Source: Acidobacteriota bacterium
GTDB taxonomy: Bacteria > Acidobacteriota > UBA6911 > RPQK01 > JADFOI01
Direction of reading: 5' to 3'
Assembly: GCA_963663035.1 (NCBI GenBank)
Contig: OY760074.1
Span: forward strand, 2,560,001-2,624,000
Length of the DNA stretch: 64,000 nucleotides
Position numbers and translations under genes: made by a program. Below the pieces are notes generated by a model that saw nothing but the letters and a program-made list of their open reading frames with translations, ran no database searches and was not told the DNA's origin. This document shows, one piece after another, positions 17,289 to 46,373 of this stretch; position 1 is the first letter of the stretch; the number at the start of each line of letters is the position of its first letter.

Positions 17289-19058
17289 ATGAGAAGATCG
17301 AGCCTTTTTTCAGTGCAGCGATCGGTTCAGACGTTCCTTATCGGGGCGATTCTTTTGGGGATCACGCCCGAGTTACTGGGTCACGCCCAGTTACTGCAAA
17401 CGGTGCCCCCGGCCAATGCGCGGCTCGAGCAGGCTCCCCGAAAGGTGCTGCTGCTCTTTAATGAAGGAATTGAGTCGATTTTTAATGGCGTGGTAGTACT
17501 CAACCGCAATGGCTTGCCCGTTCACAGCGGCGAAGCCACCCTGTCCCGAAACCAGCAGGAACTGTCCGTGGAGGTCAAGGACAACCTTCCAAACGGAATC
17601 TATACCGTCTCCTGGCGAGCCACTTCCTCTGATGGCCATCAAATTGGGGGCAACTTCGGTTTTTCAGTGGGAGAGGAATTTCAGGCCTCGGGGATGGTTG
17701 CCGTCCCCTCCGAAGGCGGGGAAGACTGGCCTGCCTTCTCGATGGCAGCTAACAGATGGCTCTATTTTCTGGCCAGTATGATGTTCGTTGGAGGCTTCAC
17801 CTTTGGGGCCCTCATCCTTGTCCCTGTGATCAAGCACCCCACATTGGAGATCCCGGCCGAAGTCTTGACTGGGGTGCGGCGCCTCTTTCTCCGTTTCTTT
17901 TCCTGGAGTTGGGTCGTGCTCCTGGTAACAGCCTTTCTCAATCTACTGTTCAAGGCGGCGGCCATGGCCGACTCCAGCCTACTGGAGGCCGCCGATCGGG
18001 ACATCCTGGCAGCCGTCATCTCCTTCACTCAGTACGGACGCATGTGGGCCGCTGGAATGGTACTGATCGTCGCTTCCGGAATTTTGTTTTTTCTGTATCG
18101 ACGCATCTGGACGGCTCCAGAGGATCTTTCCAAAAGTACCCTCTTGCTGTACCTGGGAGCAGCACTGGGTGCCCTGATGCTCTTTACGGTATCCAACTCG
18201 GGACACGCAGCGGCCGAAACCGAGTGGAGAGCACTTGCCTTAGGGGCCGACGCGCTTCATCTCGTGGCCACGGCCATGTGGGTCGGTGGTCTGGTTTATA
18301 TGGTGCTTTTCATGAGATCACTCTCGGCAGCAGAAGCGAGCCTGCGGGCTCAAGTACTGGGTGAGGTCATTCCACAGTTTTCTCGGATGGCACAGTACTG
18401 TGTGATTACCATCGTGCTCACGGGCCTGTATGCAACCTGGCTTCATATGCCCTCCTGGTCCTCATTTGTGACCACCTGGTACGGGTGGACACTTCTCACA
18501 AAACTCCTCCTGGTCCTCCCGCTCCTGGCCATAGGAGCGATGAACCTCCTGATCATCAAGCCGCAACTGAGACAGAATCTCCTCGAGCAGGGCGAAAAAG
18601 CTTTGGAAGCCACCTCTGCAGTGCTGAACCGCTTTCGTCCTCTGGTTCAGGCCGAGGTGGCCCTGGGTGTGGCTATCCTTTTGGTGGTGACGGTCCTAAC
18701 CAACATATCTCCTGCGGCCACGGCGACTTCCGGTGGGCCAGTCATGGTATCCAACGGCACCGATTTTGACATCATTTTGGAGATCGCACCCAATCAGATC
18801 GGACACAATATCGTCCAGATCCTAATTAAGGACCAGGAAGGAAACTCCGTCAGCAATCTGGGTAGTGTTCTTCTGGATGTCAATATGACCGACATGGACA
18901 TGCCCTGGCAGCGGCTCGAGGCCAGCCCCCGGGAGGACGGTTCCTATGAGGCGGAAGCCGTCCTGGGCATGGCTGGGAATTGGAGGGTCAACGTTCGAGT
19001 CACGGAGGAGGGTTCCTCCCAGCAGCAGTCCGCCGTCTTCGACAACTATATTCCTTAG
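17289..19058 (+). CDS. CopC-CopD (YcnJ-like) copper import protein with C-terminal YtkA/FixH-like domain
   Basis: Signal then HAQLLQTVP...SSDGH (CopC); multi-TM domain with SGHAAA, DALHLVATAMWVGGL, TWYG (CopD); MTDMDM and GMAGNW (YtkA-like). Confidence 0.92.
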   Translation: MRRSSLFSVQRSVQTFLIGAILLGITPELLGHAQLLQTVPPANARLEQAPRKVLLLFNEGIESIFNGVVVLNRNGLPVHSGEATLSRNQQELSVEVKDNLPNGIYTVSWRATSSDGHQIGGNFGFSVGEEFQASGMVAVPSEGGEDWPAFSMAANRWLYFLASMMFVGGFTFGALILVPVIKHPTLEIPAEVLTGVRRLFLRFFSWSWVVLLVTAFLNLLFKAAAMADSSLLEAADRDILAAVISFTQYGRMWAAGMVLIVASGILFFLYRRIWTAPEDLSKSTLLLYLGAALGALMLFTVSNSGHAAAETEWRALALGADALHLVATAMWVGGLVYMVLFMRSLSAAEASLRAQVLGEVIPQFSRMAQYCVITIVLTGLYATWLHMPSWSSFVTTWYGWTLLTKLLLVLPLLAIGAMNLLIIKPQLRQNLLEQGEKALEATSAVLNRFRPLVQAEVALGVAILLVVTVLTNISPAATATSGGPVMVSNGTDFDIILEIAPNQIGHNIVQILIKDQEGNSVSNLGSVLLDVNMTDMDMPWQRLEASPREDGSYEAEAVLGMAGNWRVNVRVTEEGSSQQQSAVFDNYIP

Positions 19059-19115
19059 CGCTAGCCGCTCTGAAGATTCGGCACCTGAGGTGCCTCCCAC
19101 GCTACAGCGCGGCCG

Positions 19116-19706
19116 CTAGCCGTTGTGGTTGTTCCTTCTATTGACGACCAACACCAAACCTGCCCCGATCAGACCTCCAAATAGCCCGCTCAATCCCAGG
19201 TAGTAGGGCATGCTCGGCTCTCCCTCTGCTCCTTCAGTCAGCATAATTACGGGAGCAGGTTTCTCCACACCTTCCTCACTGCGGTCTTCTATCCAGGCCA
19301 CCACACTACCGTCGGAATACTTCTGGTAGGCCTTGATCTGCTGCCCTCCAGTCAGCTCGGGCATGGTCATGATCAGATTGAACTGGATAAAGGTATAATC
19401 GGGAGCCGCAGCTCCGGACCAGGTGACGCTTTGAATCCAGTTGTCCTGATCCCTTTCAATGGCCACATCCCAGAGTGGATCCAGTTCGACCTTGTCCACC
19501 TGGCCTCCGGCTTCCTTCCATTCCGGTGGAATGAGGATCTTCAACTCCACCGTGGGGATGTCCTTCTCAACCGGAGCTCTAACCGAAAAGGTCACATGGC
19601 GCGCTCCGGAAACGGCCCGTCTGGGCTGGAGCCCCACATGGGCAAACGCCTGAGCAGCGAAGAAACCTCCTACGGCTAACAAACAAGCACAGTGTCTTAA
19701 TCTCAT
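19116..19706 (-). CDS. YcnI family (DUF1775) copper-binding protein, paralogue 1
   Basis: AFA-HV signal cleavage, RAPVEKDIP, YQKYSDGSVVAW, C-terminal TM. Confidence 0.88.
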   Translation of the reverse strand: MRLRHCACLLAVGGFFAAQAFAHVGLQPRRAVSGARHVTFSVRAPVEKDIPTVELKILIPPEWKEAGGQVDKVELDPLWDVAIERDQDNWIQSVTWSGAAAPDYTFIQFNLIMTMPELTGGQQIKAYQKYSDGSVVAWIEDRSEEGVEKPAPVIMLTEGAEGEPSMPYYLGLSGLFGGLIGAGLVLVVNRRNNHNG

Positions 19707-19746: not shown

Positions 19747-21213
19747 TCACAGGCTGGGACGCCTTTCATGCCAGTGATTTTCAGATTCATAGGCAAAGGC
19801 CACACGATAGATCATTTCTTCCTCAAAAGGCCTTGCTGCAATCTGCAGCCCGACCGGAAGTCCTGGAGGAGAAGTGGAAAAGCCGGCCGGCAGAGCCAGC
19901 GCCGGAAAGCCACTGCAATTAAACATTTTGGCGAAGTCCTGTGCCAGTCCGGATTGCGGTCTCTCACCAGCAGGAGCGGGTCTCCCAGGCGTGATAAAGA
20001 CATCAAAGGAGCGAAACAGTTCGTGCATTTCCTTCATAAAGACCTTCCGCAACTTTTGCGCCCGCAGATATTCCACGGCCGGAATGAGAGCACCGACTTC
20101 GGCCTCTGCCCTCGGTCGTCCGGAATCTCCATAGCGGTCAGCCTGACGAGCCAGAAAATATTCGTGATAGGAGGCAGCTTCACAGATCCGGATCACTCGT
20201 TGACCGGAGTCCATCGCTTGAAGGGTGGAAGGCATTCCGACCTCCACGACCTGGGCGCCTAATCTCCTGTAAACCTCCAAAGCGTCCTCAAAGGCTTTGC
20301 TGCACTCGGCGTGAAAAGGTTCGATCAAGGAGTGTTTGGGGATACCGATACGAAGACCCCTCACGCCTCCTCTTAAAGCCTTGGTGTAATCCGGGATTGG
20401 AACATCGGCGGTGTAATCGTCCAGCGGATCATGGCCAGCCATGACATTGAGCATCAGTGCATTATCTTCCACCGTGCGTGTCATGGGACCGATGTGATCC
20501 AGGGTCCAACTAATGGGAATGATGCCATAGCGGCTGACCAGACCAAATGTGGCCTTCATCCCCACCACATTGCACAAGGTGGAAGGGTGTCGGATGGAGT
20601 TTGAGGTGTCCCCTCCGGTGGCTCCGGTGAGCATGCCCGCTGCCAGGGCCACGGCAGAACCACCGCTGGACCCCCCAGGGGTTCTGGTGAGATCCCAGGG
20701 ATTCTTGGAAGGAGTGTCGCCGCCCATCGAGAAAGGGGGAAGCTTGGTCTTTCCGATCAGGATGGCACCCGCCTCCTTCAACCGATCCACCACCGTGGCA
20801 TCGTGAGTGGGAAAGAAGTCATCCAGCAGCGGAGACCCGCCGGTTGTTTTGATCCCTTTGGAATAGTGAGTGTCCTTCACCCCCACGGGAATCCCGTGCA
20901 AAGGTCCTCGGTATTGACGACTCCCAATCTCTTGTTCGGCCAAGCGCGCTGCCTGCAAAGCCTCATCTCGGGCCAGGGTGATGAAAGCCTGAACCTTTGG
21001 TTCCACCTCATCGATTCGTTCGAACACGGCCTGGATCAGCTCAACCGGTGAGAGCTGCCTTGTGCGGATCAATTCTGCGGCCTGAACGATGCTCAGATAA
21101 GGCAAATCACCGCTGGCGGAAGCGGCTCCCTGCGACTGTGCCGATCTTGTGGAACGAGAAGCGACCGCCCCAGCAAGAGACCCCTGAAGAAAAGTACGTC
21201 TGGTAACACTCAT
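19747..21213 (-). CDS. Amidase signature family enzyme with Tat signal
   Basis: TRRTFL Tat motif; GPLHGIPVGVKD, PGGSSGGS, GGDTSNSIRHP, GLPVGLQI. Confidence 0.9.
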   Translation of the reverse strand: MSVTRRTFLQGSLAGAVASRSTRSAQSQGAASASGDLPYLSIVQAAELIRTRQLSPVELIQAVFERIDEVEPKVQAFITLARDEALQAARLAEQEIGSRQYRGPLHGIPVGVKDTHYSKGIKTTGGSPLLDDFFPTHDATVVDRLKEAGAILIGKTKLPPFSMGGDTPSKNPWDLTRTPGGSSGGSAVALAAGMLTGATGGDTSNSIRHPSTLCNVVGMKATFGLVSRYGIIPISWTLDHIGPMTRTVEDNALMLNVMAGHDPLDDYTADVPIPDYTKALRGGVRGLRIGIPKHSLIEPFHAECSKAFEDALEVYRRLGAQVVEVGMPSTLQAMDSGQRVIRICEAASYHEYFLARQADRYGDSGRPRAEAEVGALIPAVEYLRAQKLRKVFMKEMHELFRSFDVFITPGRPAPAGERPQSGLAQDFAKMFNCSGFPALALPAGFSTSPPGLPVGLQIAARPFEEEMIYRVAFAYESENHWHERRPSL

Positions 21214-21252: not shown

Positions 21253-21456
21253 TTAACCTTTCTCGAGTCGGAAAGCGGGAATCGGATCGTCCTCCAACTC
21301 CAGCTCCACCTCATGCACGGCATCTACAGCCACCAGGTGCCTTTTCAAGGTAGCAAGGTCCTTGTCCAACCTGTCCTCGCTCAAATCCAACCCTGCTATT
21401 TTGGCCATGTGCCTCATTGCCTCTTTGAGTTCCTCATCCGTCATATTTTCATGCAT
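21253..21456 (-). CDS. Small GatC/AtzG-like amidase partner protein
   Basis: 67 aa, MAKIAGLDLSEDRL...PIPAF; directly upstream of the amidase. Confidence 0.65.
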   Translation of the reverse strand: MHENMTDEELKEAMRHMAKIAGLDLSEDRLDKDLATLKRHLVAVDAVHEVELELEDDPIPAFRLEKG

Positions 21457-21518
21457 GGTTTGTTTCTCCCCAATCCATAAGCATCGACTCTCCCCTGGCC
21501 CGCTTCACTTCAGGGGAA

Positions 21519-22037
21519 CTATTGAGGGCCACGAGTCTCAACGAGATAGTCGGCCATAGTGTTGATCTCCTCCTCTGTCCAGAGCGCGCCCCGTCCCACC
21601 ATCCGGTAAAGTGTTCCTTCCCAGCCGCGACGATCCTGTCTGAGGTCACTCCACATCCCCTCACCATGACACTGAAAACACTTGTCCGTGAAAAGCTCTG
21701 CTGCTGCCGACTGGGGGGGAGCAGAACCCATCTGACCTCCATAGTGTTCACCCAGATAGCTGACAATGGTGTCGATTTCCTCGGGGAACATCTGAGCTCC
21801 TCTGGAAATCATCTCATTCACTTTCTCTTCCCATTCCTCGCTGCTTTTCCGCTGCGTCAGGACGTTCCCCAGCGTATGACATCCTGAACAGATGCTGGCA
21901 ACCATTTGTTTCCCCTGGCCTTCGGGCATCGACTCCACCAGCTCAGGTTCTCCCTGCTGCAAGATCGCCAACACCGGGACCATGAGAAAAAATCCAAGGC
22001 AGATCACCGCCGTCACGACTTTAAGCTTGTCTACCAT
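21519..22037 (-). CDS. Periplasmic dihaem cytochrome c
   Basis: Signal; CSGCH and CFQCH, each followed by W...M-x-x-RGA repeat domain. Confidence 0.88.
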   Translation of the reverse strand: MVDKLKVVTAVICLGFFLMVPVLAILQQGEPELVESMPEGQGKQMVASICSGCHTLGNVLTQRKSSEEWEEKVNEMISRGAQMFPEEIDTIVSYLGEHYGGQMGSAPPQSAAAELFTDKCFQCHGEGMWSDLRQDRRGWEGTLYRMVGRGALWTEEEINTMADYLVETRGPQ

Positions 22038-22145: not shown

Positions 22146-22294
22146 AGCCGGAATTATGCATAGATTATCTACTGCAGTGCCACAAACATCCACGCTGACT
22201 TCGTTGTGCGACCCGCAAGCGGGTACCCCTCGCACGCCTTGTCATCGCGGCGCCTGCGGCACTTCGTCACGAAAACCTATGCATAATCCCGGCT
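22146..22294. repeat. MITE-like structured repeat, copy B
   Basis: AGCCGGAATTATGCATAG...CTATGCATAATCCCGGCT with shared core GCGACCCGCAAGCGGGTACCCCTCGC. Confidence 0.8.
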
Positions 22295-22673: not shown

Positions 22674-22910
22674 CGCCAAGTGTTTCTGATCAAGATGGCT
22701 GGAGAGGTGTCTGAACTGATCGGATTCTAACTAAAGCACCTTAATAATCCAGGGATCAGATGCGCTTTTCAGCCGAAAAATGAGGAAAGAACAGTTGATT
22801 CAAGGTTGGGGAGTGGATAGGCTTCGGTCATTCATTACCAGTTGGCTTGAGGACTTATATCCGAAGCTAATATTGAGGAATGTCAGTTTTTATCGCAGGA
22901 GGTCTTCACC

Positions 22911-23546
22911 ATGATCCAGCATGCATCCAAGCAGACACGTTTACTTTTTACGTTCTGGGCAGCTGTGATCTGTGCCCTTTTCTCGACATCTCTTTTTGCC
23001 CACGTGGCCATCTTTCCGCAGACGATTGCGGCAGGCACCCGTCACCACAACTTTTACATACGGGCGCCGGTTGAGAAAGACATTCCGGTGGTAGAGATGG
23101 GCTTTGAGGTGGATGAACGATGGCTCGAAAACCGGGGAAGTTTTGATTTCCAGCACGTAGCGGATTGGGACCTGCACGTGGAGTTAAACGAAGACGAAAG
23201 GGTCCATAAGGCATGGTGGACGGCAAAAGGAGAGGGAGCCTTGGCGGGAACCTTCCAGTTGATTTTCATGCGTGTGAATGTTCCTAGTACGCCTGGGGTG
23301 TATAACTTCGTTGCCTGGCAAAAGTACTCAGATGGAAGCGAGGTGTGGTGGAACGAAGTGCGAGGAGAAGAGGGTGTCAGTACCCCCTGGGCAAACGTGA
23401 CGGTAGAAGCAGAGCCCCTCTTTGGAGCTGGGCCTCTTGAGATAAGCGTGGCGGGCTTTGCCTTCCTGGCTCTGGCACTTTCTTTCTATGCTTTGGCTAC
23501 TGTGAGAAAGCTGCTGGCTTCAGGAAATCAAAAGGCGGATTCGTAG
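22911..23546 (+). CDS. YcnI family (DUF1775) copper-binding protein, paralogue 2
   Basis: LFA-HV, RAPVEKDIP, WQKYSDGSEVWW, C-terminal TM. Confidence 0.85.
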   Translation: MIQHASKQTRLLFTFWAAVICALFSTSLFAHVAIFPQTIAAGTRHHNFYIRAPVEKDIPVVEMGFEVDERWLENRGSFDFQHVADWDLHVELNEDERVHKAWWTAKGEGALAGTFQLIFMRVNVPSTPGVYNFVAWQKYSDGSEVWWNEVRGEEGVSTPWANVTVEAEPLFGAGPLEISVAGFAFLALALSFYALATVRKLLASGNQKADS

Positions 23547-23649
23547 CACGCGCACACGTTCCTGATTGTCTTCAGGCGGGTAGCAGGGGTACCAGTTGCG
23601 ACCGAACCTGGTCGATCGAATCCTGGTTTAGAACGGAAATGTGGGAAAC

Positions 23650-23715: not shown

Positions 23716-26700
23716 CTAAAACAGGATTCTGAGACCGAACTGAATCTGGCGCGGCCTGGTGGTGAGTGACCTCAGCTCCCCGGCGTTGCTTCGGACCCTG
23801 CCATCGTCGCGGAAGAGGTTAGTCCGGGGCGCACGGAAGTTGGCCCGGTTGAAGGCGTTGAAAAATTCGGCCCGAAACTGCACATTTATGTCTTCCGTGA
23901 TCTGATTGTTCTTGGTCAAAGAAAGATCGATATTTGCTATACCCGGTGCGATCAGGGTGTTGCGTCCCACATTACCGATGGTGACGATTTCACCGAAGTT
24001 GGGAGAAGCGGGGTCAGTGTTCGCAGGAGGTGGCCTGAAACCTGAAACATCGAAGTAGTGAAGATGATCTTTCGTTCCTAGGACCGGACTGAGGCTGTTA
24101 CCCGGAATAAGGTCGGGCATCTGCTGGCGAAGCTCCAGGTCATCGACAAAATCAGAAGCCGACATAGTGATGGTTTGCGCTGGCCCATCTGCCAGTCTCA
24201 CGATAGTGCTCAGCTGCCAGCCGCCTAGAACCGTATTCACCGCGTTGTTCCAACTGTTCCCCAAGGCCTTGCCCTGCCCGAAGGGAAGCTCAATAACGCT
24301 GCTGGCTGAGAAGGCATTTTGCACATGAAATGCGGCCAGGCTTCTGCGCAGGTCGGGCTCCGGATAGTAGCTGACGCCGCCGCCCTGGTTGCTAAAGCTG
24401 CCATTGACCTGGGAGCTTTCATCGATGGTCCTGGAGAAAGTGTAGGAAACCTGCAGCTGCCAGCCATCTCGAAAGCGGCGCTGAAAACCTGTTTGAAGGC
24501 TATGGTACCAGGAATCGACGGAGGTCTCTTGGCTGAGCAGGCACAAATCCGCTATCGCGGGGGCCGTGTTGCGCACCGTTGCATCGTCTGCATACACCAG
24601 GCGGCCATTGACGTTGTCGGCAACACCCATATTGATGCAGGTCTGGTGGAACAGGTTCAAGCCTCGAGAGCCGGCATAGCCGATTGTCACTGCGGCTCCG
24701 GGCAGAACCTCGTGCTGAATGTTGAGATTCCACTGGTACGTATGAGGATTCTTCATATAGTCATAGGCAAACGGCTGGATATCCTCACTCCCAATTCCCT
24801 GTTCTGTCACTTGGCGGTAGACACCGTTTGGGTCATCCCCGGGAGCAAAGGTCCCGTTTAAGCCACTGCGAAAGTTCTGCTCCCTCATATGGGGAGTGTT
24901 GCGAAAGCCGGCCCGCCGGAAGGCACCCGGTTGGATGTGATTGTAAAAGAGTCCGGCGCCCAGCCGGAAGGCGGTCTTTCCAGATCCGGTGGGATCATAG
25001 GCGAAGCCGATTCGAGGCATGAAACTCTTCACTGAAGGATTTTCAAACCAGGAATCACCATTCTTGCCATTGACGGTGACGCCAGTGTCGGTCAGGGGAC
25101 TCTTCATGTTGGAAAGTTTTCCGTCCGCTTCCGTGGGCACGGTGAAAAACTCGTGGCGGAGGCCCAGGTTGGCGGTGAGTTTGGGAGAAATTTGCCAGTC
25201 ATCCTGGAGGTACCAGGCTATGATGTCGGTATGGAAGTCCCTTATGCCGTCGGAATCCTCCAGAAGATTCCCGCGAAATCGACTGGGTTGGTTGAACATA
25301 AAGCGCACCATGTTGGAAAAGGAAAAATCCCCGGCAATACGGGACGGGTTCTCGCCGCCGAAGTCCACGCGATGCCAGGAGAACCCTGCTTTCAGAGAGT
25401 GAGGGCCCGTGTTGTAAATGATATCGTCCTGCCATTGGTAGTTGGTGGTTTTGGCAAACGTCCAGCCATTGGCTCCTCCTGCCGGCGCTGACACGCCTGC
25501 AGCGGAAAGGCCGCCAGGATTATACTCACCCATAGTCGGCTGTTTACTCTCTTCAGTACCGAAAGTTGGGGTTTTAAATTTATCTAGCGGAATAAAGTTA
25601 AGAGCGGGGTTGCAACAACCGTCCTGTTCAGTAGATGTCGCAAAATTCTGGCGGCGACCGATGCCAACACGAGCGATGTTCAGGAGTTGAGGCGAGAAGA
25701 TATGTTTCTCCTCGAAGGTCGAAAAGTCATTCTCGACAATCTCCGCTGTGCTCCAAAAAGGAATATCATGGATCGCATTTCGGTCGGAGTCCTGCCAGGT
25801 ATAGCGCCCGAAAATGGAGTCAGACTCGGAGAAGTTGTGATCGACTCGGAGCTGATAATAGTCTTCGCTCACTGGACGGGGTGTATCGAACCTCTCTTCA
25901 GTTGTTCCATCTTCTTGGTCGATTGTATTGGACGCGGCTAGAGGATAAAAGTCAGTCGTCAGGTAGCGAAGAACGCCGGGGTCAAAGGCCGCGAACTGGC
26001 GCATGTCGGCCAGAGGGGCGCCTTCGTCAATGCTCGGCCTGCCCCTTGAATCCAAGACGATATCGCCATTGCTATCAACCTCGAGCGGCAGAAAGCCATT
26101 CCGTGTGGCGTCGGTGGGAAGGGTGCGCGACCGCGCTTGGGCCTTCCGCTCTCGCATGCCTTCGAAATTAAAAAAGAAGAAGGTTTGATTTTCAATAATG
26201 GGGCCTCCGATGCTGAACCCATACTGATTGCGGATGAACTCCGCTTTTTCTAGGCCCGCGTCCAGCTTGCTGAAGAAGTCGGAGGCATCCAGATTGTCGT
26301 TGCGAATATATTCATAGATGGAGCCATGAAACTCGTTGCCGCCGGCCTTGCTGACCACGTTGATTACGCCTCCCGCGGCACCTCCAAACTGGGCACTGTA
26401 GGAATTCCTTTCGACCCTGAACTCCTGGACGGCTTCCCCACCCAGAAAACTTCCTGAGACACCTGCCGGAACACCTTGGTCGGAACCCTTCACCGAACTG
26501 CCGTCCAGCAATACCGCCGAGTCGTGGGGGCGAGCGCCGCCGACAGACACCCTCTGGGAGTAGCCGTTGTTGACACCTCCTTCACCCAGACCACCGGCTG
26601 TGGTGACATGGACGGCTCCGGGCTGCAGCGTCATCAGTGAGGTCAGGTCCCGTCCATTGAGAGGAAGCTCCAGAACCGTGTGGCGGTCCACCAGAGAGCC

Positions 26701-27093: not shown

Positions 27094-27104
27094 GGTGCCC
27101 TCCC

Positions 27105-28484: not shown

Positions 28485-28551
28485 GCCCTCCCTCTCAGTT
28501 GAAGTGGCTAGCTTAAAACTGGATGTTGTACCTCAAACAAAACTTGTCTGA

Positions 28552-28876: not shown

Positions 28877-29218
28877 ATGAAACTGAGTTCGTCCTCATTG
28901 GCGACTCTTGCCGTCCTTCTGCTGGTGATCCAGGGGAGTCCGCAGCAGGTGCAGGAGGCTACCGTTAAAGTGACCGAAAAGGGCTATGAGCCAGCTGAGC
29001 TTAAGCTTCAGCTGGGGGTTCCGGCCCGGCTGACGTTTGTACGCGAAACGGACAAAACCTGTGGAACTGAAGTCGTCCTTCCGGAATACCACATCGAGCG
29101 CGCACTGCCGCTGAATGAGCGCGTAGTCATTGAGTTCACACCGCAAAAGTCCGGAACATTTGGGTTCGCTTGCGGCATGAATATGCTGAAAGGCAGGCTG
29201 GTCATTTCCGAAAACTAG
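28877..29218 (+). CDS. Cupredoxin-domain protein (CupA-like)
   Basis: Signal; GYEPAEL, CGTEV, FACGMNMLKG. Confidence 0.88.
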   Translation: MKLSSSSLATLAVLLLVIQGSPQQVQEATVKVTEKGYEPAELKLQLGVPARLTFVRETDKTCGTEVVLPEYHIERALPLNERVVIEFTPQKSGTFGFACGMNMLKGRLVISEN

Positions 29219-29233
29219 GAGCCCGCTTTTCCT

Positions 29234-31114: not shown

Positions 31115-31136
31115 ATTGGGGGAAAGGAGACTTCGA

Positions 31137-33319: not shown

Positions 33320-33534
33320 GGTTGAATCCTCCATATAAAGTGATTGGAGTATAGCTAGGGACGACTGCACGAGGCTATCTTTAGTTCAATAGAGTAACCT
33401 TCGCGACTTTTCCCTACTGTTCTGGACAAAAAATTGACCTATTTGTTATTGACTATCACTACAGTGGTCCCACTGTCAAGCAGAAAAGAGCCAGATGTTG
33501 GACACCACCGTGTCGATGCCAGATATCAATCCAC

Positions 33535-36774: not shown

Positions 36775-36815
36775 TGACTCCCTTGGTTGAAAACTTCGAA
36801 GAAAAACTTGCAAAA

Positions 36816-38009: not shown

Positions 38010-39260
38010 TTAGTTTGTGGCGGTGCTTACCACCTCATCAAAAAGACGCAGCATGTTTTCTCCCATGATCTTGGCCACATCCTCGGAACTGTACCCTCTG
38101 TTCGAAAGTGCCTGAGCGATATTCTGGTATCCACTGGCGTCTTCGATTCCCTGGAGGTTGACGGGGTAGCCTCCAAAGTCGGTGCTGATTCCCACATAGT
38201 CCACACCCACCAGCCTCACGATGTGGTCAATATGGTCAATCAGAAGAGAGAGGGGCTGAAGGTTTCGGCGGCGCTCCTCGATCGATGCCCCCCGACGGGC
38301 TTCACTTGCTCTATTTCGCTCGTCGATAAATTCGTAAATCTTGGTTGGATCTCCTGTGTACAGAAGGGGCTCATTACCCATGAGGCGGGATCCCCGCGGA
38401 GGCCCGCTGGGCGTGGCACTTCGTCGAGTGGCTAGCTGGGGCATGGCTGGGACGCAAATGACCCCGTTCATCTTGGCCAGCGTCTGAATCATCTCATCGC
38501 TCCAACCACTGCCCAGGGATCGAGCTCCCGAGTGAGTCGTGGAGACTGGCTGTGTACTGACTGCCATCACATCCAGGATGGTTTGCTCACCGGCGTGGGA
38601 AAGATCAATCAGGATCCCCAGTCGATTCATCTCAGCCACCAATTCCCGCCCGAAATCGGTCAGGCCATAACCCTTGCCGTCATTGCTACGGCTGAACCCC
38701 ACATCGCCGATGTTATTGGCAAGGAGGTGGACCAGATTCATCTCGCGCAATCCCAGCCGGTGGAACATCCGCAGCACCCCCAGGTCACTCTCAATGGCCA
38801 GCGCTCCTTCGATGGCCAGGATACCTGCAATTTTGCCCTCTCGGCGAAGGGCTCTGACCTCCTCGGCATTGGTGGCCACTCCCACTTGATCGGGGTACTT
38901 GGCAATTTCCCGATAGAAGCGGTCAATCTGCCTGAGAGCGTCTTTGACGGCCAGATGGTTGACTTCATAAAACTCATCAATCGAGGTATTGAAGAGGGCC
39001 GCTCCCAGGCCACCCTTCTGGGCCAGGGAGAGGGTAAATCGGGGATCGGCATTGGGCTCTCCGATGGTTCCTCCTCGGCGATAAACGGATGAGATGGGAT
39101 GCATGTGCCCATCAAAGACCCAGACCCTGCTGTCTGGGGAGCTCTGGGCATAGCTGGTCAAGGACCCGGTCCAAATGGGCGGGGGGAAAATCCCCAGTGA
39201 AAACGAAAGTGCCACAAACAGAGCACCCAGGCTCAGTAGCCCACCAGTGAAGCGATGCAT
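38010..39260 (-). CDS. Membrane dipeptidase (peptidase M19), exported
   Basis: DGHMH, AIEG, GLTDFG, IDLSH, TTHS, GISTDFGG, KIMGENMLR. Confidence 0.9.
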   Translation of the reverse strand: MHRFTGGLLSLGALFVALSFSLGIFPPPIWTGSLTSYAQSSPDSRVWVFDGHMHPISSVYRRGGTIGEPNADPRFTLSLAQKGGLGAALFNTSIDEFYEVNHLAVKDALRQIDRFYREIAKYPDQVGVATNAEEVRALRREGKIAGILAIEGALAIESDLGVLRMFHRLGLREMNLVHLLANNIGDVGFSRSNDGKGYGLTDFGRELVAEMNRLGILIDLSHAGEQTILDVMAVSTQPVSTTHSGARSLGSGWSDEMIQTLAKMNGVICVPAMPQLATRRSATPSGPPRGSRLMGNEPLLYTGDPTKIYEFIDERNRASEARRGASIEERRRNLQPLSLLIDHIDHIVRLVGVDYVGISTDFGGYPVNLQGIEDASGYQNIAQALSNRGYSSEDVAKIMGENMLRLFDEVVSTATN

Positions 39261-39270
39261 AGCTCACCTC

Positions 39271-40525
39271 CTAATTTGTCACCTCATCAAACACCCGCAG
39301 CAGGTTTTCTCCCATGATCTTGGCCACATCCTCAGAACTGTACCCTCGGCCCGAAAGGGCCTGAGCGATATTCTGGTACTCACCGGCGTTCTCAATCCCT
39401 TTGATATTGACCGAGTAGCCTCCCCAGTCTGAGCTGATCCCCACATAATCAGGCCCCACCAGCCTGACGATGTGGTCGATGACATCAATAAGGTTCGAGA
39501 GAGGAGGGATGTCCTGGCGGCGCTGGAGAATCGTTTCACTCGGTCCTGATCCCCCCCCCACCTGTTCGTTCAGCGATGAAATCGTAGATCTTGGTGGGGT
39601 CTCCCCGGTAGACCAGCGGCTCCAGTCCCATGATGCCCGAGCCGCGCTGGCGGCCTCCGTGCCACTTGGCATCGTACTCCCGGCTCACCTGCTGAGGTAA
39701 GAAGGCAACGGAAATGACTCCTCTCTTGTCGGCCAGGGCTCGGATCATGTCGTCGCTCCAGTTCCCGGGCCGATCCACCAGGGCTCGAGCCCCCGAGTGA
39801 GTCGTCGCCACCGGCTGGGTGCTGGCTGCCATCACATCCCAGATGGTTTGCTCAGCCGCGTGGGAGAGATCAATCAGAATTCCCAGTCGATTCATCTCGG
39901 CCACCAGCTCTCGGCCGTAGGCAGTCAGCCCTGACCCCTTACCCTGGTTTTTGGTGGTGTACATGACATCACCGATATTGTTCTCAAGGTTGTGGACCAG
40001 GTTCATCTCGCGCAGGCCCAGCCTGTGCAGCATGCGCAGAACTCCCAGGTCGCTCTCAATGGCAAGGGCTCCTTCAATCGCCATGACGGCTGCTAGTTTG
40101 CGCTCTCTGCGAAGGGCGCGAACATCGGCAGCATTCCTAGCCACTCCAACCTGATCCGGGAACATGGCGATTTGGCGATAGAAGTGATCAAACTGCCTCA
40201 GCGCCTCTTTGACGGCCAAATGGTTGGCTTCGAAGAACTCGTCAATCGAGGTGTTAAAAAAAGCAGCCCCCAGTCCCCCCTCTTGAGCCATGGAGAGCGT
40301 AAAGCGGGGATCGGGACTCGGCTCTCCAATGTTGCCTCCTCGCCGATAGGCGGAGGATGTGGGGTGCATGTGCCCATCAAAGTCCCAGAATTTGCCGTCC
40401 TGGAGGCTCTGGGCTTGGCTGGTCGAAGACCCGGGCCAAAAGGCCGGGGAGAAAATACCCAGTGCCAAGGCAAGTGCTAAAAGCACGGCAACCAGCATGA
40501 GCCACCGCGCACTGGAGAGATTCAT
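39271..40525 (-). pseudogene. Second M19 dipeptidase, frameshifted in a G9 tract
   Basis: N-part 40525-39536 and C-part in another frame to 39271; C9 at 39551-39559 on plus strand, and removing one base restores the frame. Confidence 0.85.
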
Positions 40526-40569: not shown

Positions 40570-42741
40570 TCAAAAGTCAAAGGAGTGGGTGAGTTTGACG
40601 ATGATTGTTCGATCGGTGAGATCCGACCTGCGCGTTTGATTGTAAACCACGAACAAATCATCGCCTAGTCGGTAGATATAGTTGAGTCGAAAGTTGATAT
40701 TGAACAGATCTTCCAGGTTGTCGTATTGGAGAGTGGTGCTGGTGAGCCACTCGTTGGTCAAGTTGTAATTGATCCCTATGTTGCTCACGCTGGAAGAAAA
40801 CTCGCCGCCCGGCAACACGACATCATCCAGCCTGTACTGAATGTCAAAGGAGAGGTTTTGTGACCACTTGATATTGGGGTCCAGATTCAGCGTGGTTCTG
40901 CTGCCATCCCAGAAGTTATTTTCTCGTTGGACCTGGAAGAAGCCACTCACTCTTCTACCCCCGTAGGAGTTGAATTGCGCCTGGAAGCGATCACTGCTGT
41001 ACGATCCAGGTGGAACCGGAATCCGTCCCCTCAACTGAAAGGGATCCTCCAGGAATTCAAAAGCCTTGGTGTAGCCAAACTGAAGGGAGTCTCCACTTTC
41101 CAATGCTACGCCGAACCTTAGGGCCTGCTCTCTTGTTTCTAAAACCTCGTCCTGGTTGCTGAGGTAACGCAAGTCGGCACCCAGCTCAAAGCGCCGGATC
41201 CATTCGCTGCTGGGTCGTGGGTTGACCTGGAAGTTCAACATACTCTGGTTCATGCCCGCCCGCGGGACGAAACCCATCTCGGCATTGAAGTTCCGCCCAA
41301 TGATCATGTGTTCCGCGTTGGCGGAAAAAAAGTCGGTTTGCCAGGTTATCTGAAGCGGTCTGGTCGCCCAATCGTCTTCATCAACTCCGGGGGTTTGAGA
41401 ACTGGTGAAGAAAGATTCCACGTGCAGGTTGTCAAAAAACACGAAATTTCCGTCCACACCAAAAACACGGTTGGAGTCGTCCTCCAGGCTGGACTGGCGA
41501 TTGGTGAGCATGGCGCCCACATTTGAACGAGACAGGAATCTTTTTCTGAACCTCAGCACCGAGAAATTACTGCCGGGGGTACCCTCAATATCGTCCGTCT
41601 GCATGTTTATGAAGCCTAAGTCCAAACCCTTGATCTGCCCGGTGAGTTTGACCCCGGCAAGAATGTCTATCGGCTCCCGACTGTCTGATAAACCGATGGT
41701 TCGACTATGAAAGAGTTTCACTTCCGGTACAAATCCCCCCGGACCGAAATCAAAAAGGCTGGCATTTTCCTGGAAGAACTCTCTTCTTTCAGGAAAGAAT
41801 ACGGAAAATCGTGTCAGGTTCACGATCTGTTGATCGACATCTGCTTGGGCGAAATCCGGATTGGCAGTGAAATCCAGGGTCAGACTGGGAGTCAGCTGAT
41901 ATTTCACATCCTCCAGTCCCACATCGAACAGATGATCCGTCTCCGCTGTTCCGTCCCTGAAGGCACGGGACGCACCTCCAGTCAAGTAGGGCTTGATGCG
42001 GAGTCTGTGCTCACTGGAAATGTTCTCCAAACCAACCAGTTCACCCGCTTGAGAGACCTGAAGGAAGTTGAAGTCGCGCCGATAATTGCTCCATACGGCC
42101 TCCTCGTTTTTTCGCCTGATGTTTCGCTTGAAGTCGATTCCCCACACTTGACTGTCCCGGTCCGGCATTCGTATGGAGTTGAAGGGGATCTCGATTTCAA
42201 CCATCCAGCCCACCTCATTTCTGGTGGCGGCCACCAGCCAGCGTTCATCCCAGTTGGAGTTTTCACGCCCTCCTTCGTCGGTGATCCAGGAGTCAAACTT
42301 GGTTCCCAAGGGATTGGTGCGAAAGAGAAAACCATCCTGATGGTTGTGAAAAGTATCCAGGATGATCTCAAAGGTATCGTCGCTCCCCAGTGAGTCATCC
42401 CGAGCTCTCTCATGGGCGATGATCCTTCCGGCTTGAGAATCCTCACACAGGACGCCAAAGAAAATGGACTCGTCATTGTAGATGATCCTAATGACGGTTC
42501 TTTCGGTAGCTGCTGTCCCTTCCTGGGGATCCCGCTGCAGGAATCCAGAGACAACAGGCGCCCCATTCCAGATTGCCTCGCTCAGATCGCCATCCACAGT
42601 CGGTGAGCCATCCACCCGCAGGGCCTGAGCGACTTTCCTGGCCGGGCCCTGCACCACCGCGGGCCGCGCCATCGCATGGCAGACACAGCTAACCCCAATC
42701 ATCAGGATAAGGACAATGACCGAGTTGACACGCCAGGGCAT
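40570..42741 (-). CDS. DUF5916 outer-membrane protein with N-terminal CBM9-like domain
   Basis: PTVDGDLSE, LDTFH, EIEIPF, NPDFAQ, FFPERREFFQE, C-terminal Phe (THSFDF). Confidence 0.85.
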   Translation of the reverse strand: MPWRVNSVIVLILMIGVSCVCHAMARPAVVQGPARKVAQALRVDGSPTVDGDLSEAIWNGAPVVSGFLQRDPQEGTAATERTVIRIIYNDESIFFGVLCEDSQAGRIIAHERARDDSLGSDDTFEIILDTFHNHQDGFLFRTNPLGTKFDSWITDEGGRENSNWDERWLVAATRNEVGWMVEIEIPFNSIRMPDRDSQVWGIDFKRNIRRKNEEAVWSNYRRDFNFLQVSQAGELVGLENISSEHRLRIKPYLTGGASRAFRDGTAETDHLFDVGLEDVKYQLTPSLTLDFTANPDFAQADVDQQIVNLTRFSVFFPERREFFQENASLFDFGPGGFVPEVKLFHSRTIGLSDSREPIDILAGVKLTGQIKGLDLGFINMQTDDIEGTPGSNFSVLRFRKRFLSRSNVGAMLTNRQSSLEDDSNRVFGVDGNFVFFDNLHVESFFTSSQTPGVDEDDWATRPLQITWQTDFFSANAEHMIIGRNFNAEMGFVPRAGMNQSMLNFQVNPRPSSEWIRRFELGADLRYLSNQDEVLETREQALRFGVALESGDSLQFGYTKAFEFLEDPFQLRGRIPVPPGSYSSDRFQAQFNSYGGRRVSGFFQVQRENNFWDGSRTTLNLDPNIKWSQNLSFDIQYRLDDVVLPGGEFSSSVSNIGINYNLTNEWLTSTTLQYDNLEDLFNINFRLNYIYRLGDDLFVVYNQTRRSDLTDRTIIVKLTHSFDF

Positions 42742-42760: not shown

Positions 42761-42790
42761 CTAGCCGGGATTATGCATATTCCCGGCTAG
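42761..42790. repeat. Collapsed MITE-like copy C (terminal repeats only)
   Basis: CTAGCCGGGATTATGCATATTCCCGGCTAG near-perfect palindrome matching the ends of copies B and E. Confidence 0.75.
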
Positions 42791-43377
42791 AAATCAAAGG
42801 TGTGGGTGATTTTAAAGAGAATAGACCAGCTGCGTTCCTCGCTGGCTTGATCGAGGTCGGTCAGGCTTCGATTGAAAACCAGGAAGATGTCGTCTCCGGG
42901 CCGATAGATGTAGTTCAGGCGAACGTTCAGCCCCCACTCCTTATCCAGATGGTTGTACTGAAGGGTCGTGCTGGTGAGCCACTGGTTGGTGAGATTGAGG
43001 TCGAATCTCCCATTGGCAACGTGAGAGGTGAACGCTCCCTGGGGCAGATCTACCTTCTCCAGCTCGTATTCAAACTCAGTCAGAAACTGATCGGACCATC
43101 GCATCTCTGGTCCGAGTTGGAGCGAGGATTTCTTGCCTCCCCAAAAGTCCTCTCTGGAGATCATGAAGAAGCCGGAAACCCATCTTCCACCATAGGGACG
43201 CAACTGAAGAGAAAACTCGTCGTTCCGATAGGTTCCAGCAGGAACAGGAATTCTGCCGGCCAGAAGAAACCCATCCTCCTCCTCCAAATTTCTGGCATAC
43301 CCAAGCTCCACTGACCTTGCCCCCTAAAACGAGTCCAGTTTGAATGTTAGGATTTCCGGTTTAGGAAGGAGGCAAGG

Positions 43378-43656
43378 ATGGCAGGGAAGCGGTTTAGGGC
43401 AGAACAGATCATCATGAAGCTGCGTGAGGCAGAGGTGGGTCTGGCCCAAGGACAGAGGGTGGGACAGGTGTCGAAGCAGATGGGGGTGAGCGAGCAGACC
43501 TACTACCGGTGGCGCAAAGAGTACGGAGGGCTCCGGTTGGACCAGGCCAAGAGGTTGAAGGTGTTGGAGAAGGAGAATACCCGGTTGAAGAAGCTGGTGG
43601 CGGATCTGTCTTTGGACAAGCAGATCCTGAAGGAAGTGTCCTCGGGAAACTTCTAG
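43378..43656 (+). CDS. IS3 transposase OrfA
   Basis: [19 protein letters not shown]; slippery G-GGA-AAC at 43644-43650. Confidence 0.92.
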
Positions 43657-44549
43657 GCCCGGCGAACAGGAGACGAGCGGTGATGTGGGTACGAGAGCGA
43701 TTAGGAGCAGAGCGAGTCTCCGAACGTCGGGCCTGCCAAGTGCTGGGACAGGTTCGATCGACCCAGCGAAGGGAAAGGCAAATTCCCGATGATGAGGCCC
43801 GATTGGTGGCCCGGATGGTGGAGTTGGCTACGCAATACGGGCGTTATGGCTACCGGCGGGTCACGGCGATACTTCATGGGGAAGGGTGGAAGGTGAATCC
43901 TAAGCGGGTGGAGAGGCTGTGGAGACAAGAAGGGCTGAAAGTCCCGTCCAGACAGCCGAAACGAAGGAGGCTGTGGCTTAATGACGGTTCCTGTGTTCGG
44001 TTACGAGCGGCTCGCAAGAACCACGTCTGGAGCTATGATTTCGTGCATGAACGGACCCATGATGGGCGAGCCTTTCGGCTATTGACGATCCTGGATGAGT
44101 ACACCAGAGAGTGCCTCGCCATTGATGTGAAACGGCAGATGAATCACCAAGACGTGTTGGACCGGCTGGCGGAGTTATTCGTTGATCGGGGAGTGCCTGA
44201 GTTTATCCGGTCCGATAACGGATCGGAGTTTACGGCACAGGCGGTCCGGGACTGGCTGCAGGCTGTTGGGGTAAGGACCTTGTACATCGAGCCGGGCAGC
44301 CCCTGGGAGAATGGGTACATTGAGAGTTTCAACGGGAAACTACGGGATGAGCTGCTGAACATGGAGATCTTCGACACGCTGGGGGAAGCCAAGGTGTTGG
44401 TAGAACGCTGGCGGAGGGATTACAATCAGATCCGGCCTCACAGCGCCTTGGCCTATCGGCCGCCGGCGCCAGAGGCCAAACTACCTAGGTCGCAGGCACT
44501 GGATCCAATCCCTTGGAGTGGACTTCAAATGGTCCCGGGTCTAGCATAG
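43509..44549 (+). CDS. IS3 transposase OrfB (translated via -1 frameshift)
   Basis: [32 protein letters not shown]. Confidence 0.92.
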
Positions 44550-46373
44550 AGGGTGGACTCGTTCGTGGGGGCAGGTCACCACGGCATCTCCACTTTCCAT
44601 GTCCAGACCGAAGCTGACACTCTGCTCCCGGCTCTGTAAGTTTCCGTCCATATCCGTCAGGTACTCCAGGTCGGCACTGAATTCCAACTGGCGGAGCCAC
44701 TCGGCTCCGGGTCGCGGGCTGAACTCCAAGCCGACAACACTTTTTTGGATGTCGGATCGGCTGACAAAACCCACCTCAGCGCTAAAATCTTCCTCCACGA
44801 TCAAGTGGCGCGCCAGGGCGGAGAAACGGTCCGTGTCCCAAGTGAGCCAGAAAGGGACAGCAGCCCACCCATTTCCGGAGTCGCCGCTGGACTCTGATTT
44901 GACGACGAAACCCTGAAATTGGAGATTTTCCATAAAGATGAAATGGGAATCCACTCCAAAAGTTACGTTGTTCCCCTCTGCCGTGTTTTGCAAATGGGTG
45001 GCCATTGCGCCCACATAGGATCGAGCAAAGAGATTCTTTCTCAGCCGATAGGCGCCATAATTGGTGCCTGGCGTTCCTTCGTGCTCTCGGGTCTGCGCAT
45101 TCATGACTCCCAGACCCCAGCCAGGAAACTGGCCGGTCAGTCGAGCGCCAAAGAGAATGGGAATGGGCTCTGCCCTTCGCCCGCTCGTCAGTCCAATGCG
45201 CCGGGTATGCAACAGCTTGACCTCGGGTCTTCCTCTCCCCCCCGTTCCAAACTCAAACAGGCCGGCGTCTTCCAGGAAAAACTCCCGCTTTTCCTGAAAG
45301 AAAAGGGAAAAGCGCGTCAGATTGATCTGTAAGTCATCCACCTCGGCCTGGGCAAAATCGGGATTGACCGTCGCATCCAGCTTTAAGCGGTTGGTGAGGG
45401 TGTATCGGACGTTCTCCAGGCCCACATCCAGCTCTTCCTCAGTTAGCCGCTCACTCTGCGAGCTCACTCGAAGCGTCCCTCCCACAAAGTAGGGCTTCAC
45501 CTGTAAACTCAGGATCCGCACGCTGTCTGGGAGCTCAGTGAGATGTCCCGCTTGAGACACCTCCACAAACCCGTAGTCCCTTTGGTAGTTGCTCCATACC
45601 ACGGTTTCGTTCTTTCGGCGAATCTCCCTCCTAAAATCGATGCCCCAGACAGCCTCGTCCATCTGCGGTATCCGAAGGATCTTGAATGGAATCTTGATTT
45701 CCGCTCCCCACCCCCAGGAATAGACTTGAGCCGCCACTTCCCAGCGGCCATCCCACTCTTCGTTTTGAAGCTTCCCTTCGTCCGTGATGAGTGCATCCCA
45801 CAGGTTGCCCAGAGGATTGGTACGAAAGAAGTAGGAGTCTCGATGGCTGTGAAAAGTGTCCAGGACAAACCCAAAAGTATCATCGGCCTCCATATCGGCG
45901 TCACGCCTTCTCTCAGTGGCCCGAATTTGCTGCGGTGCTGAATCATAGCATCGCACAGCCAAAAAAAGAGTATCGCTGGTATAAATGATCTGCACCTCCG
46001 TCCTCTCGCTGGGTTCGCCCCCTTCGTTCGGTTCCTGTTGGCGAAAGTCGGAGATCGCAGGAGCATTGACCCATTGGGGGTCGGTGAACTCTCCATCTAA
46101 AACAGGGCCTTCTGCTACGGCCACGGCCTGAATGACTTTGGTGCTTTCCGCTGTGGCGTCTTGCTGAGCCTCTGCTGAAGAGAGTCCCAGCAGAAGGATC
46201 AGTAAGATTGTGAAGGCTTTCGTCACGGGCTGCACTCTATTCAAACTTCCCTTTCGATAGTAAAGATGGCTCAACTAATAAAGACCTTCACCCGGGTCAG
46301 GGCGTTCGCTTTTTTTTGGTGTCACGGTTGCTTTCCAGCGATTCTATGGCCAGGGAAAAAGAAGGTCAAGGCA

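Follow-up and report, generated by a model that had tools for sequence, protein, structure and literature searches.

Copper-binding YcnI, a DUF1775 protein, binds Cu(II) and often neighbours CopCD (PMC8424229), and Cu(II) is exchanged between YcnI and YcnJ (PMC12362106), as described in the accessible parts of these papers. At the outer membrane, TonB receptors have been placed in copper supply, namely TccA and PcuB in the accessible part of PMC12617631 and NosA/OprC and MbnT in that of PMC7558416. The passage of copper across the diderm outer membrane to CopC/CopD-type importers is largely unknown, and YcnI has been studied only in a monoderm. Here we describe a locus of an Acidobacteriota bacterium in which YcnI paralogues and a CopC-CopD-YtkA fusion lie together with TonB-dependent receptors (TBDRs) and exported hydrolases. 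The window analysed comprises 64,000 nucleotides, positions 2,560,001-2,624,000 of a single-contig genome of 3.59 Mb (completeness 96.6%). The best-supported core of the locus is a putative association of YcnI proteins of two clades (1 and 3) with Oar-type TBDRs and with M19 dipeptidases carrying an HxH motif. A literature search that left most subscription journals outside turned up no account of YcnI next to TonB receptors or M19 enzymes, and the accessible part of PMC6669012 contained nothing relevant.

The locus shares with ycnKJI of Bacillus subtilis the three-domain CopC-CopD-YtkA fusion and, next to it, a DUF1775 protein in which a signal peptide, the N-terminal His, the Glu and Trp residues and a C-terminal anchor are all found. 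It differs in its diderm host, in that no YcnK-like repressor was seen among the window open reading frames (ORFs), and in the presence of four YcnI paralogues per one CopCD, which belong to three clades with different neighbours. TonB receptors and M19 enzymes are not among the YcnI partners named in the accessible parts of PMC8424229 and PMC12362106.

Gene identities were derived from Pfam scans and BLAST comparisons of paralogues, with extra checks by NCBIfam models, tblastn and blastn, and export signals were assigned by inspection of N-termini by eye. All four YcnI proteins of this genome passed the PF07987 gathering cut-off of 25 bits (YcnI-1 53.4, YcnI-2 25.2, YcnI-3 28.8 and YcnI-4 29.2 bits), those of clades 2 and 3 aligning to the C-terminal half only of the profile. 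In the alignment each of them has a signal peptide ending just before a His, the RAPVEK motif and a C-terminal membrane anchor. The copper site was defined by three residues of B. subtilis YcnI, namely His27 at the mature N-terminus, Glu50 and Trp137 close by. YcnI-3 matched this protein (7me6) in phmmer with an E-value of 7.9e-8 in an alignment starting from mature His1, in which RAPVEK pairs with KVPSEK and VVWW with IVEW and both Glu and Trp are matched. His and Glu are retained in 33 out of 33 YcnI homologues with an N-terminus, the 34th (L019) being cut at a contig end. Judged from these alignments, the predicted copper-site His, Glu and Trp of B. subtilis YcnI are kept in all YcnI copies. 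The AlphaFold2 model of YcnI-3 reached a predicted local distance difference test (pLDDT) value of 68, with low confidence around the N-terminus, and its best fold match in the PDB was 7me6 (E-value 7.3e-8, template modelling (TM) score 0.69 on the target). A tree of the 34 YcnI sequences resolved three well-supported clades, with YcnI-1 in clade 1, YcnI-2 and YcnI-4 in clade 2, and YcnI-3 in clade 3. YcnI-2 and YcnI-3 share 47.6% identity, and YcnI-1 is 36% identical to either of them. In the CopC-CopD-YtkA protein, Pfam places CopC at residues 32-127, CopD at 359-470 and YtkA at 488-569. Its mature N-terminus likewise starts with His (LLG followed by HAQL). The gene is single-copy, with one tblastn match in the genome, and its NCBIfam CopD and CopC matches are below their cut-offs.

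Two co-oriented runs on the minus strand carry most of the genes in question. The first reads DUF5916b, DUF5916a, M19b, M19a, asparaginase, TonB receptor 2 and YcnI-3, with intergenic gaps of 10-79 bp from DUF5916b through receptor 2 and of 164 bp between receptor 2 and YcnI-3. The second, decayed run reads receptor relic, M19 relic, dihaem cytochrome c, a 67-aa ORF, an amidase with a twin-arginine (Tat) leader and YcnI-1, through which it converges on the plus-strand CopC-CopD-YtkA gene. YcnI-2 (plus strand) and receptor 1 (minus strand) are convergent. This gene map had been drawn in a preliminary description of the window, and every gene named there was confirmed by Pfam scans and paralogue BLAST. 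Its claim that the intact hydrolases carry export signals agrees with leaders read by eye on the amidase, the asparaginase and the M19 enzymes. Absent from it was a plus-strand block of cupredoxin, CusF-OEP and multicopper oxidase (MCO) genes between both runs. The genome contains 4 DUF1775 genes, 14 Oar-type receptors and 1 CopCD. At tblastn thresholds of E<=1e-8 and at least 30% of the query covered, its M19a-like genes are confined to this window.

Neighbourhoods were compared at 26 loci found by scanning species-representative genomes (about nine genomes of Acidobacteriota) and at 39 more loci found on metagenome contigs. Homologues of window genes were counted as adjacent when they lay no more than 1.5 kb away, and the clade counts derive from related contigs of one bacterial family. 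A receptor or M19 gene lay within 1.5 kb of clade 3 YcnI in 10 out of 11 cases on genome contigs and 14 out of 23 on metagenome contigs; most of the 9 metagenome misses had less than 900 bp of flank, and one frameshifted gene was counted twice. The corresponding numbers for clade 2 were 0/9 and 0/11, and these 0/20 serve as an internal control. Neighbours of clade 2 genes were a dienelactone-hydrolase-family gene, a convergent major facilitator superfamily (MFS) gene or a multicopper oxidase gene. By our own arithmetic, regions no more than 1.5 kb from a receptor or M19a-like gene make up about 2.8-3% of the genome, and 2 of its 4 YcnI genes fall into them. At the fourth YcnI locus (L001) there is no receptor, no M19 and no copper gene. 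The orders that recur around clade 3 genes were TBDR-YcnI, YcnI-TBDR-M19, M19-YcnI and SnoaL-like-YcnI-M19-SnoaL-like.

For clade 1 YcnI, a receptor was found within 1.5 kb of 2/8 genes on genome contigs and 3/7 on metagenome contigs (5/15). Other neighbours were the amidase (2) and cupredoxin/CusF-OEP genes (2 on genome and 2 on metagenome contigs). CopCD adjoins clade 1 YcnI in all three places where CopCD was found (window, L021 and L050). L024 represents an intact form of the decayed run, with M19, cytochrome c, small ORF, amidase and YcnI-1. The cupredoxin/CusF-OEP/oxidase block also follows YcnI-1-type genes in four related loci: in L022 the amidase precedes YcnI-1 and the series continues with cupredoxin, CusF-OEP, oxidase and another YcnI-1, the order in L023 and L103 is TBDR, YcnI-1, cupredoxin, CusF-OEP, MCO, and in L116, where the order is listed through CusF-OEP, it is YcnI-1, cupredoxin, CusF-OEP.

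The preliminary description had made its proposal dependent on conserved co-occurrence in related genomes. Such co-occurrence was found for the YcnI-3 type, and the idea survives. M19 enzymes and Oar-type receptors, which it had named as neighbours to look for, do recur beside YcnI-3-type genes in most related contigs. The amidase link held for the YcnI-1 type (window, L022, L024). Incidental shuffling in a region rich in insertion sequences (IS), offered there as the other explanation, does not fit the YcnI-3 linkage, which is conserved in relatives, and probably applies to the pairing of YcnI-2 with receptor 1. Given the clade 2 count and the gene-sized duplication of YcnI-2, this pairing is not supported as part of the system and is probably a by-product of rearrangement. 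A stretch of 739 bp around YcnI-2 (22888-23626) is 87.7% identical at the nucleotide level to C1:1645762-1646500, 0.94 Mb away. In the tree YcnI-2 is nearer to the gene at the YcnI-4 locus of L020 (91% amino acid identity) than to YcnI-4 of its own genome, which suggests gene conversion or exchange between relatives.

Both receptors of the window are of the Oar type, composed of a CarboxypepD_reg N-domain and a PF25183 barrel, with a plug matched weakly in receptor 2 (3.6e-4), and are 55.7% identical to each other. In a FastTree phylogeny of 26 Oar-type receptors with Shimodaira-Hasegawa (SH)-like supports, 13 receptors formed a clade with a support of 99, all of which are YcnI-linked or M19-linked; relatives' receptors were sampled for nearness to YcnI or M19, so that only the receptors of this genome are an unbiased set. 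Within this clade 4 receptors adjoin clade 1 YcnI, 8 adjoin or lie near clade 3 YcnI, and 1 adjoins three M19 genes. The YcnI-1-adjacent and the YcnI-3-adjacent receptors fall into separate sister subclades. Since these mirror the YcnI tree, they suggest that the receptor-YcnI pair is old and was duplicated as a unit. A third TonB-dependent receptor of the window (52313-54805) has a CarboxypepD_reg N-domain and, differing from the other two, a classical PF00593 barrel; it is located near an alkaline-phosphatase-family gene and phosphate-transport genes.

M19a scored 268.5 bits with PF01244 (cut-off 26) and matched Sco3058 (3id7) with an E-value of 9e-43; it is about 70% identical to M19b. The first metal-binding motif of canonical M19 enzymes, those of the same genomes included, is HxD. 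In the alignment, HxHP was present in 28 out of 29 sequences at least 49% identical to M19a, the remaining one being cut there, whereas five rows with 31-32% identity comprised three with H-I-D, one with H-V-H and one without this region. The ligand set H52, H54, E157, H222, H243 and D361 is invariant among the M19a-like sequences, all of which have a signal peptide as judged by eye. M19a-like enzymes thus appear to be a lineage-specific divergent M19 subfamily with HxH in place of HxD, and are predicted to be dipeptidases. In a 401-genome sample, the M19a-like profile scored 722 and 573 bits in the present genome, and no other genome exceeded 288 bits. M19 genes number up to 10 per family genome, often in tandem arrays of 2-3. 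Most of them are situated away from YcnI, in clusters that contain receptors, DUF5916 genes and the cytochrome/small-ORF/amidase set. A complex prediction for M19a (residues 40-416) with the soluble domain of YcnI-3 (26-160) returned a score of 0.00, which is neutral on binding.

The nearest NCBIfam models of the amidase are GatA, a generic amidase and AtzE-family models, all below cut-off; the AtzE models gave 268 and 255 bits versus cut-offs of 461 and 426. The 67-aa ORF adjoins the amidase gene with 64-96% identity in L022, L024, L067, L069 and L080. It matches NCBIfam GatC with an E-value of 0.007, far below the cut-off, and its assignment as a possible GatC/AtzG-like partner of the amidase is weak. 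In L022 a thiamine diphosphate (ThDP) enzyme (488-2371, Pfam) is encoded between the genes of the dihaem cytochrome c and the small ORF, and it was inferred at the same position from a gap of about 2 kb in L069 (2935-4996); it is missing in the window, where 62 bp separate the two genes (21456-21519). The asparaginase scored 242 bits with the NCBIfam type II asparaginase model, below its cut-off of 314. The AlphaFold2 model of DUF5916a (pLDDT 92.3) consists of a CBM9-like domain on a large outer-membrane barrel, and its fold matches were CBM9 (1i82, TMt 0.75) and large outer-membrane barrels. The DUF5916 family comprises 22,318 representative clusters and has no solved relative by sequence. 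DUF5916b is 49% identical to DUF5916a over residues 36-553 and 47% over 553-723 (BLAST).

DUF1775 was detected in 11/14 other genomes of the family, in 0/26 genomes from fifteen other families of the order, and in 8/401 genomes of the phylum; these tallies include G017, G180 and G063, which are flagged unpublished, affecting at most 3 counts. Outside the family, seven DUF1775 loci in six other Acidobacteriota genomes were examined. DUF1775 was fused to SnoaL/DUF4440 in 4/7 of them, and 5/7 were placed among CusABC, CopA-type ATPase, multicopper oxidase, CopB or MerR genes. In 0/7 was a receptor or M19 gene near DUF1775, and the linkage is therefore not extendable beyond the family. Fusions of SnoaL/DUF4440 with DUF1775 were seen inside copper-resistance islands of another acidobacterial family (L042, L044, L046).

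Taken together, we tentatively favour a lineage-specific copper-handling island in which YcnI paralogues would be fixed partners of TonB-dependent uptake loci and would capture Cu(II) from imported or hydrolysed ligands. We regard this as quite possible without calling it probable. The receptors and DUF5916 barrels would bring small peptides or amides into the periplasm, where M19, asparaginase and amidase would cleave them, mainly as nutrients. Some of the imported ligands may carry Cu(II), freed on entry or on hydrolysis, which the neighbouring YcnI would capture and pass onward. Its destination may be the CopC domain of CopC-CopD-YtkA, resulting in supply, or the adjacent oxidase/efflux set, resulting in protection. 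Supply is favoured by the YcnJ-like partner, protection by the copper-resistance contexts elsewhere in the phylum and by the adjacent oxidase/efflux genes. It is in this sense that we infer a release of copper from imported peptides and its hand-over to CopCD.

A number of observations weigh against the proposed copper-handling island. All linkage evidence comes from one bacterial family, whose related contigs do not count as independent cases. With up to 10 copies per genome, M19 is more abundant than a need for trace metal suggests. Only about 9 of the 48 M19 matches that the family search gave outside this genome share a contig with DUF1775 within 5 kb, among the M19 loci without a DUF1775 match on the contig one M19a-like locus (L081) has a YcnI fragment, and a targeted set of canonical M19 loci (L062-L064, L078, L079) had YcnI in 0/5. 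None of the receptors of this genome belongs to the YcnI/M19-linked clade, receptors 1 and 2 being placed in an amidohydrolase-linked one, and the five closest paralogues of receptor 2 in the genome have Amidohydro_3, Amidohydro_1 or asparaginase genes as neighbours and no YcnI. As DUF1775 occurs in copper-resistance islands of other Acidobacteriota, the link could serve detoxification rather than uptake. Regarding regulation, Pfam revealed no helix-turn-helix regulator, copper regulator or YcnK-like repressor among the window ORFs scanned. Inspection by eye, with no motif-finding program, of 130 bp upstream of 66 YcnI genes revealed no palindrome common to the clades. Neither promoter-like sites (10 versus 8.3 in shuffled sequences) nor terminator-like sites (21 versus 19.8) were enriched, and the scan is uninformative; the sites preceding receptor 2 and YcnI-3 match a consensus and no more. 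Among the contigs of two metatranscriptome libraries that were listed, none bridges receptor 2 and YcnI-3. In favour of the island, such contigs, at 99% identity or more, covered the cupredoxin gene, YcnI-3, receptor 2 (in pieces), the asparaginase gene, the M19a/asparaginase junction and M19b. They provide a weak hint to expression and do not prove transcription. The multicopper oxidase and DUF5916a genes had no cover in these libraries, which is not readable as silence.

The hydrolases themselves are probably nutrient enzymes first. Loci with a receptor and an exported amidohydrolase or asparaginase but without YcnI are common genome-wide, and the hydrolases therefore need no copper role. 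DUF5916 with 29 and the asparaginase-like protein with 7 tblastn matches in the 3.6-Mb genome are both multi-copy, and they pair without YcnI elsewhere (L125). Both were rejected as specific YcnI partners. The asparaginase, the DUF5916 barrels and the receptor-plus-amidohydrolase theme are a genome-wide nutrient strategy.

It may therefore be asked whether the two gene sets are functionally coupled at all. Organic-nitrogen uptake loci and a separate copper-homeostasis set could have been co-inherited in an accessory, IS-rich island of one family. The genome of G005 from the same genus has CopCD, YcnI-1, the flanking MFS gene and the biotin side but lacks the block of 19.7-46.3 kb between the same flanks, as well as any M19; judged by this comparison of sequences, the block is accessory. 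Insertion sequences and miniature inverted-repeat transposable element (MITE)-like repeats are abundant in the genome, relics are found in the window, and both the receptor-plus-amidohydrolase loci without YcnI and the non-conserved pair of YcnI-2 and receptor 1 point in the same direction. On the other hand, adjacency is kept at 50-70% protein identity and across several gene orders, clade 2, although it belongs to the same protein family and these same genomes, has none in 20 cases, and the receptor subclades mirror the YcnI clades. We hold an absence of coupling to be somewhat unlikely.

A narrower version of copper handling would be a salvage route, in which an Oar-type receptor would import an environmental Cu(II)-peptide, an HxH-type M19 enzyme would destroy the ligand, and YcnI-3 would relay the copper via YcnI-1 and CopC to CopD, with no home-made chalkophore involved. 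This more specific route appears unlikely to us. If true, it would be the first case in which an enzyme destroys a ligand to set copper free, and the YcnI/YcnJ pathway would gain its first partner in the outer membrane.

In a direct copper-uptake pair, the Oar-type receptor would import Cu(II) or a small Cu(II) complex, in the manner proposed for NosA/OprC, TccA or PcuB, and YcnI would be its periplasmic acceptor, with the hydrolases as bystanders. A TBDR followed by YcnI, with no hydrolase seen, was found in L002, L003, L005, L023, L026, L083, L114 and L119, the receptor and YcnI clades co-diverge, and TonB receptors have a precedent in copper supply in the accessible parts of PMC12617631 and PMC7558416. 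However, many such contigs end at the pair, and longer ones add M19 (L007, L086, L087, L090, L118). Moreover, seven loci (L004, L008, L009, L011, L091, L093, L094) have the order YcnI-M19 on contigs that carry no receptor, and the two receptors reached 21.7 and 14.5 bits with the NCBIfam copper 'CU motif-type' model NF049946, whose cut-off is 700. We hold a direct pair to be decidedly unlikely.

It is highly doubtful that YcnI-3 serves the HxH-type M19 enzyme as a metallation, redox or protective partner, the altered metal site using or being poisoned by copper: HxHP is uniform in the M19a-like enzymes (28/29, one cut) versus HxD in 3/5 canonical ones, their ligand set is invariant, the YcnI-3/M19 pair is the commonest arrangement and, within the samples searched, neither protein family was met outside this one bacterial family, but most M19a-like genes have no nearby YcnI, YcnI-3 is also paired with receptors alone, and no M19 enzyme is known to use copper.

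The features of the locus are compiled below.

Table. Genes, relics and repeats of the copper and hydrolase locus, with positions in the 64,000-nucleotide window
Feature	Position	Strand	Evidence and remarks
CopC-CopD-YtkA fusion, YcnJ-like inner-membrane copper protein	17289-19058	+	Pfam CopC 1.3e-20, CopD 3.1e-21, YtkA 2.2e-9
YcnI-1 (DUF1775, clade 1)	19116-19706	-	Pfam DUF1775 4.6e-14, full profile; 40 bp downstream of amidase
Amidase-signature enzyme, twin-arginine leader MSVTRRTFLQG	19747-21213	-	Pfam Amidase 1.9e-100
67-aa small ORF	21253-21456	-	Conserved upstream of amidase; no Pfam match
Dihaem c-type cytochrome, signal anchor	21519-22037	-	Dehyd-heme_bind 1.6e-11, Cytochrome_CBB3 2.7e-9; two CxxCH
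Dispersed repeat of ~150 bp, MITE-like, between cytochrome gene and relics	22146-22294		>100 blastn matches genome-wide, 80-97% identity
M19a-like dipeptidase relic, last ~41 codons	22304-22426	-	tblastn 93% to M19b C-terminus, E 8e-19; 76% to M19a
Receptor-2-like TonB receptor relic, last 49 codons	22458-22604	-	tblastn 67%, E 1.8e-14; nucleotide identity 89.9% to 33507-33654
YcnI-2 (clade 2)	22911-23546	+	Pfam DUF1775 2.3e-5; gene-sized duplicate
Oar-type TonB-dependent receptor 1	23716-27117	-	OMP_b-brl_4 1e-168, CarboxypepD_reg 3.2e-18
IS256/Mutator-family element abutting receptor 1 start	27105-28485	-	Transposase_mut 1e-59; ~20 near-identical genome copies
Cupredoxin, CusF-OEP fusion, multicopper oxidase	28877-32396	+	Cupredoxin_1 1.1e-17; CusF_Ec 1.8e-12 and OEP 6.7e-31; Cu-oxidase_3/_2
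YcnI-3 (clade 3)	32726-33370	-	Pfam DUF1775 1.8e-6; likely start Met at 33319
Oar-type TonB-dependent receptor 2	33535-36813	-	OMP_b-brl_4 6.6e-171, CarboxypepD_reg 3.9e-20, Plug 3.6e-4
Exported type II-like asparaginase/glutaminase	36893-37996	-	Asparaginase 2.3e-36, Asparaginase_C 1.9e-23
M19a, exported M19-family dipeptidase (predicted), HxH subfamily	38010-39260	-	Peptidase_M19 1e-79; HxHP motif
M19b, second HxH-type M19 dipeptidase (predicted)	39271-40525	-	Two ORFs, Pfam M19 profile positions 9-245 and 243-319
DUF5916a, outer-membrane beta-barrel with N-terminal CBM9-like domain	40570-42741	-	DUF5916 3.7e-19, CBM9_1 1.6e-7
DUF5916b, split by IS3-family element	42787-46274 (N-part 44541-46274, C-part 42787-43311)	-	BLAST to DUF5916a

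The load of mobile elements is very heavy, with more than 100 copies of the MITE-like repeat, more than 60 of an IS3-family and about 20 of an IS256-family element. The IS3-family element (43311-44578; Pfam rve/rve_3) interrupts DUF5916b. M19b is frameshifted at a C9 run (39551-39559), where contigs from three public runs of different studies (X14, X4, X6) have one C fewer; the gene is therefore probably intact. Four further single-base indels relative to contigs of other runs, at 29702, 31041, 40255 and 43074, may be strain differences or homopolymer errors of the assembly, and two of them fall inside the CusF-OEP/oxidase genes. The MFS gene at 46405-48009 was considered as a copper importer and dropped from the system because NCBIfam places it in the DHA2/EmrB efflux pumps.

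Several other genes were noted around YcnI-3 in relatives. Small SnoaL_3/DUF4440 proteins flank the YcnI-3/M19 pair in L008, L009, L011, L091, L093, L094 and L097. An ABC ATPase gene on the opposite strand is located just upstream of YcnI-3 in L004, L006, L086 and L087, followed on the longer contigs (L004, L086) by one or two ABC-2/DUF3526 permeases. A BlaI/CopY-family (Penicillinase_R) repressor gene is divergent from YcnI-3 in L054 (10560-11111) and L112 (6063-6509). An unlabelled ORF and efflux genes follow it; among the latter, OEP is shared by both loci, L054 adds an RND pump and L112 a HlyD-type adaptor. Both this genome and a relative encode large ankyrin-repeat proteins (L054 2919-5171; L125 11713-13209), one of which is fused to a nucleotide cyclase domain.

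What the analysis defines is a conserved pairing of YcnI paralogues with TonB receptors, a linked, apparently lineage-specific dipeptidase subfamily and, with YcnI clade 2, an internal negative control. If the coupling is true, scavenging of organic nitrogen would be tied to supply of, or protection from, a trace metal. If it is false, the locus still shows how accessory islands are assembled in IS-rich genomes.

Among described systems, the TonB-dependent copper supply of Proteobacteria by NosA/OprC, TccA and PcuB, the last from the Bradyrhizobium Cu-starvation operon pcuABCDE, resembles the locus in that a TonB receptor is encoded beside periplasmic copper proteins and a CopC/CopD-type protein, as described in the accessible parts of PMC12617631 and PMC7558416. 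In contrast to these, the receptors found here are Oar-type proteins (PF25183 with a carboxypeptidase-regulatory-like N-domain) that fail the copper-motif model, and exported hydrolases are present in the neighbourhood. PcuA of the Bradyrhizobium operon may itself be a DUF1775 protein. The proposed sequence of TonB import, ligand breakdown and metal capture by a binding protein has parallels in the methanobactin system with MbnT/MbnE and in the Fes/IroE-type enterobactin esterases. Unlike methanobactin-type systems, the window is without biosynthesis genes, a solute-binding protein and a dedicated ABC importer in Pfam scans, in which no Mbn-specific models were used. In difference to chalkophore and siderophore systems, the hydrolases belong to large multi-copy families of nutrient type. 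Polysaccharide-utilisation-type loci are similar in their tight co-oriented run of a receptor, a second outer-membrane barrel (DUF5916 with a CBM9-like domain) and exported hydrolases, a theme that is repeated many times in this genome. Here, however, the enzymes are predicted to cleave amide instead of glycosidic bonds, a SusD-like lipoprotein is missing, and some of the loci include a gene for a copper chaperone.

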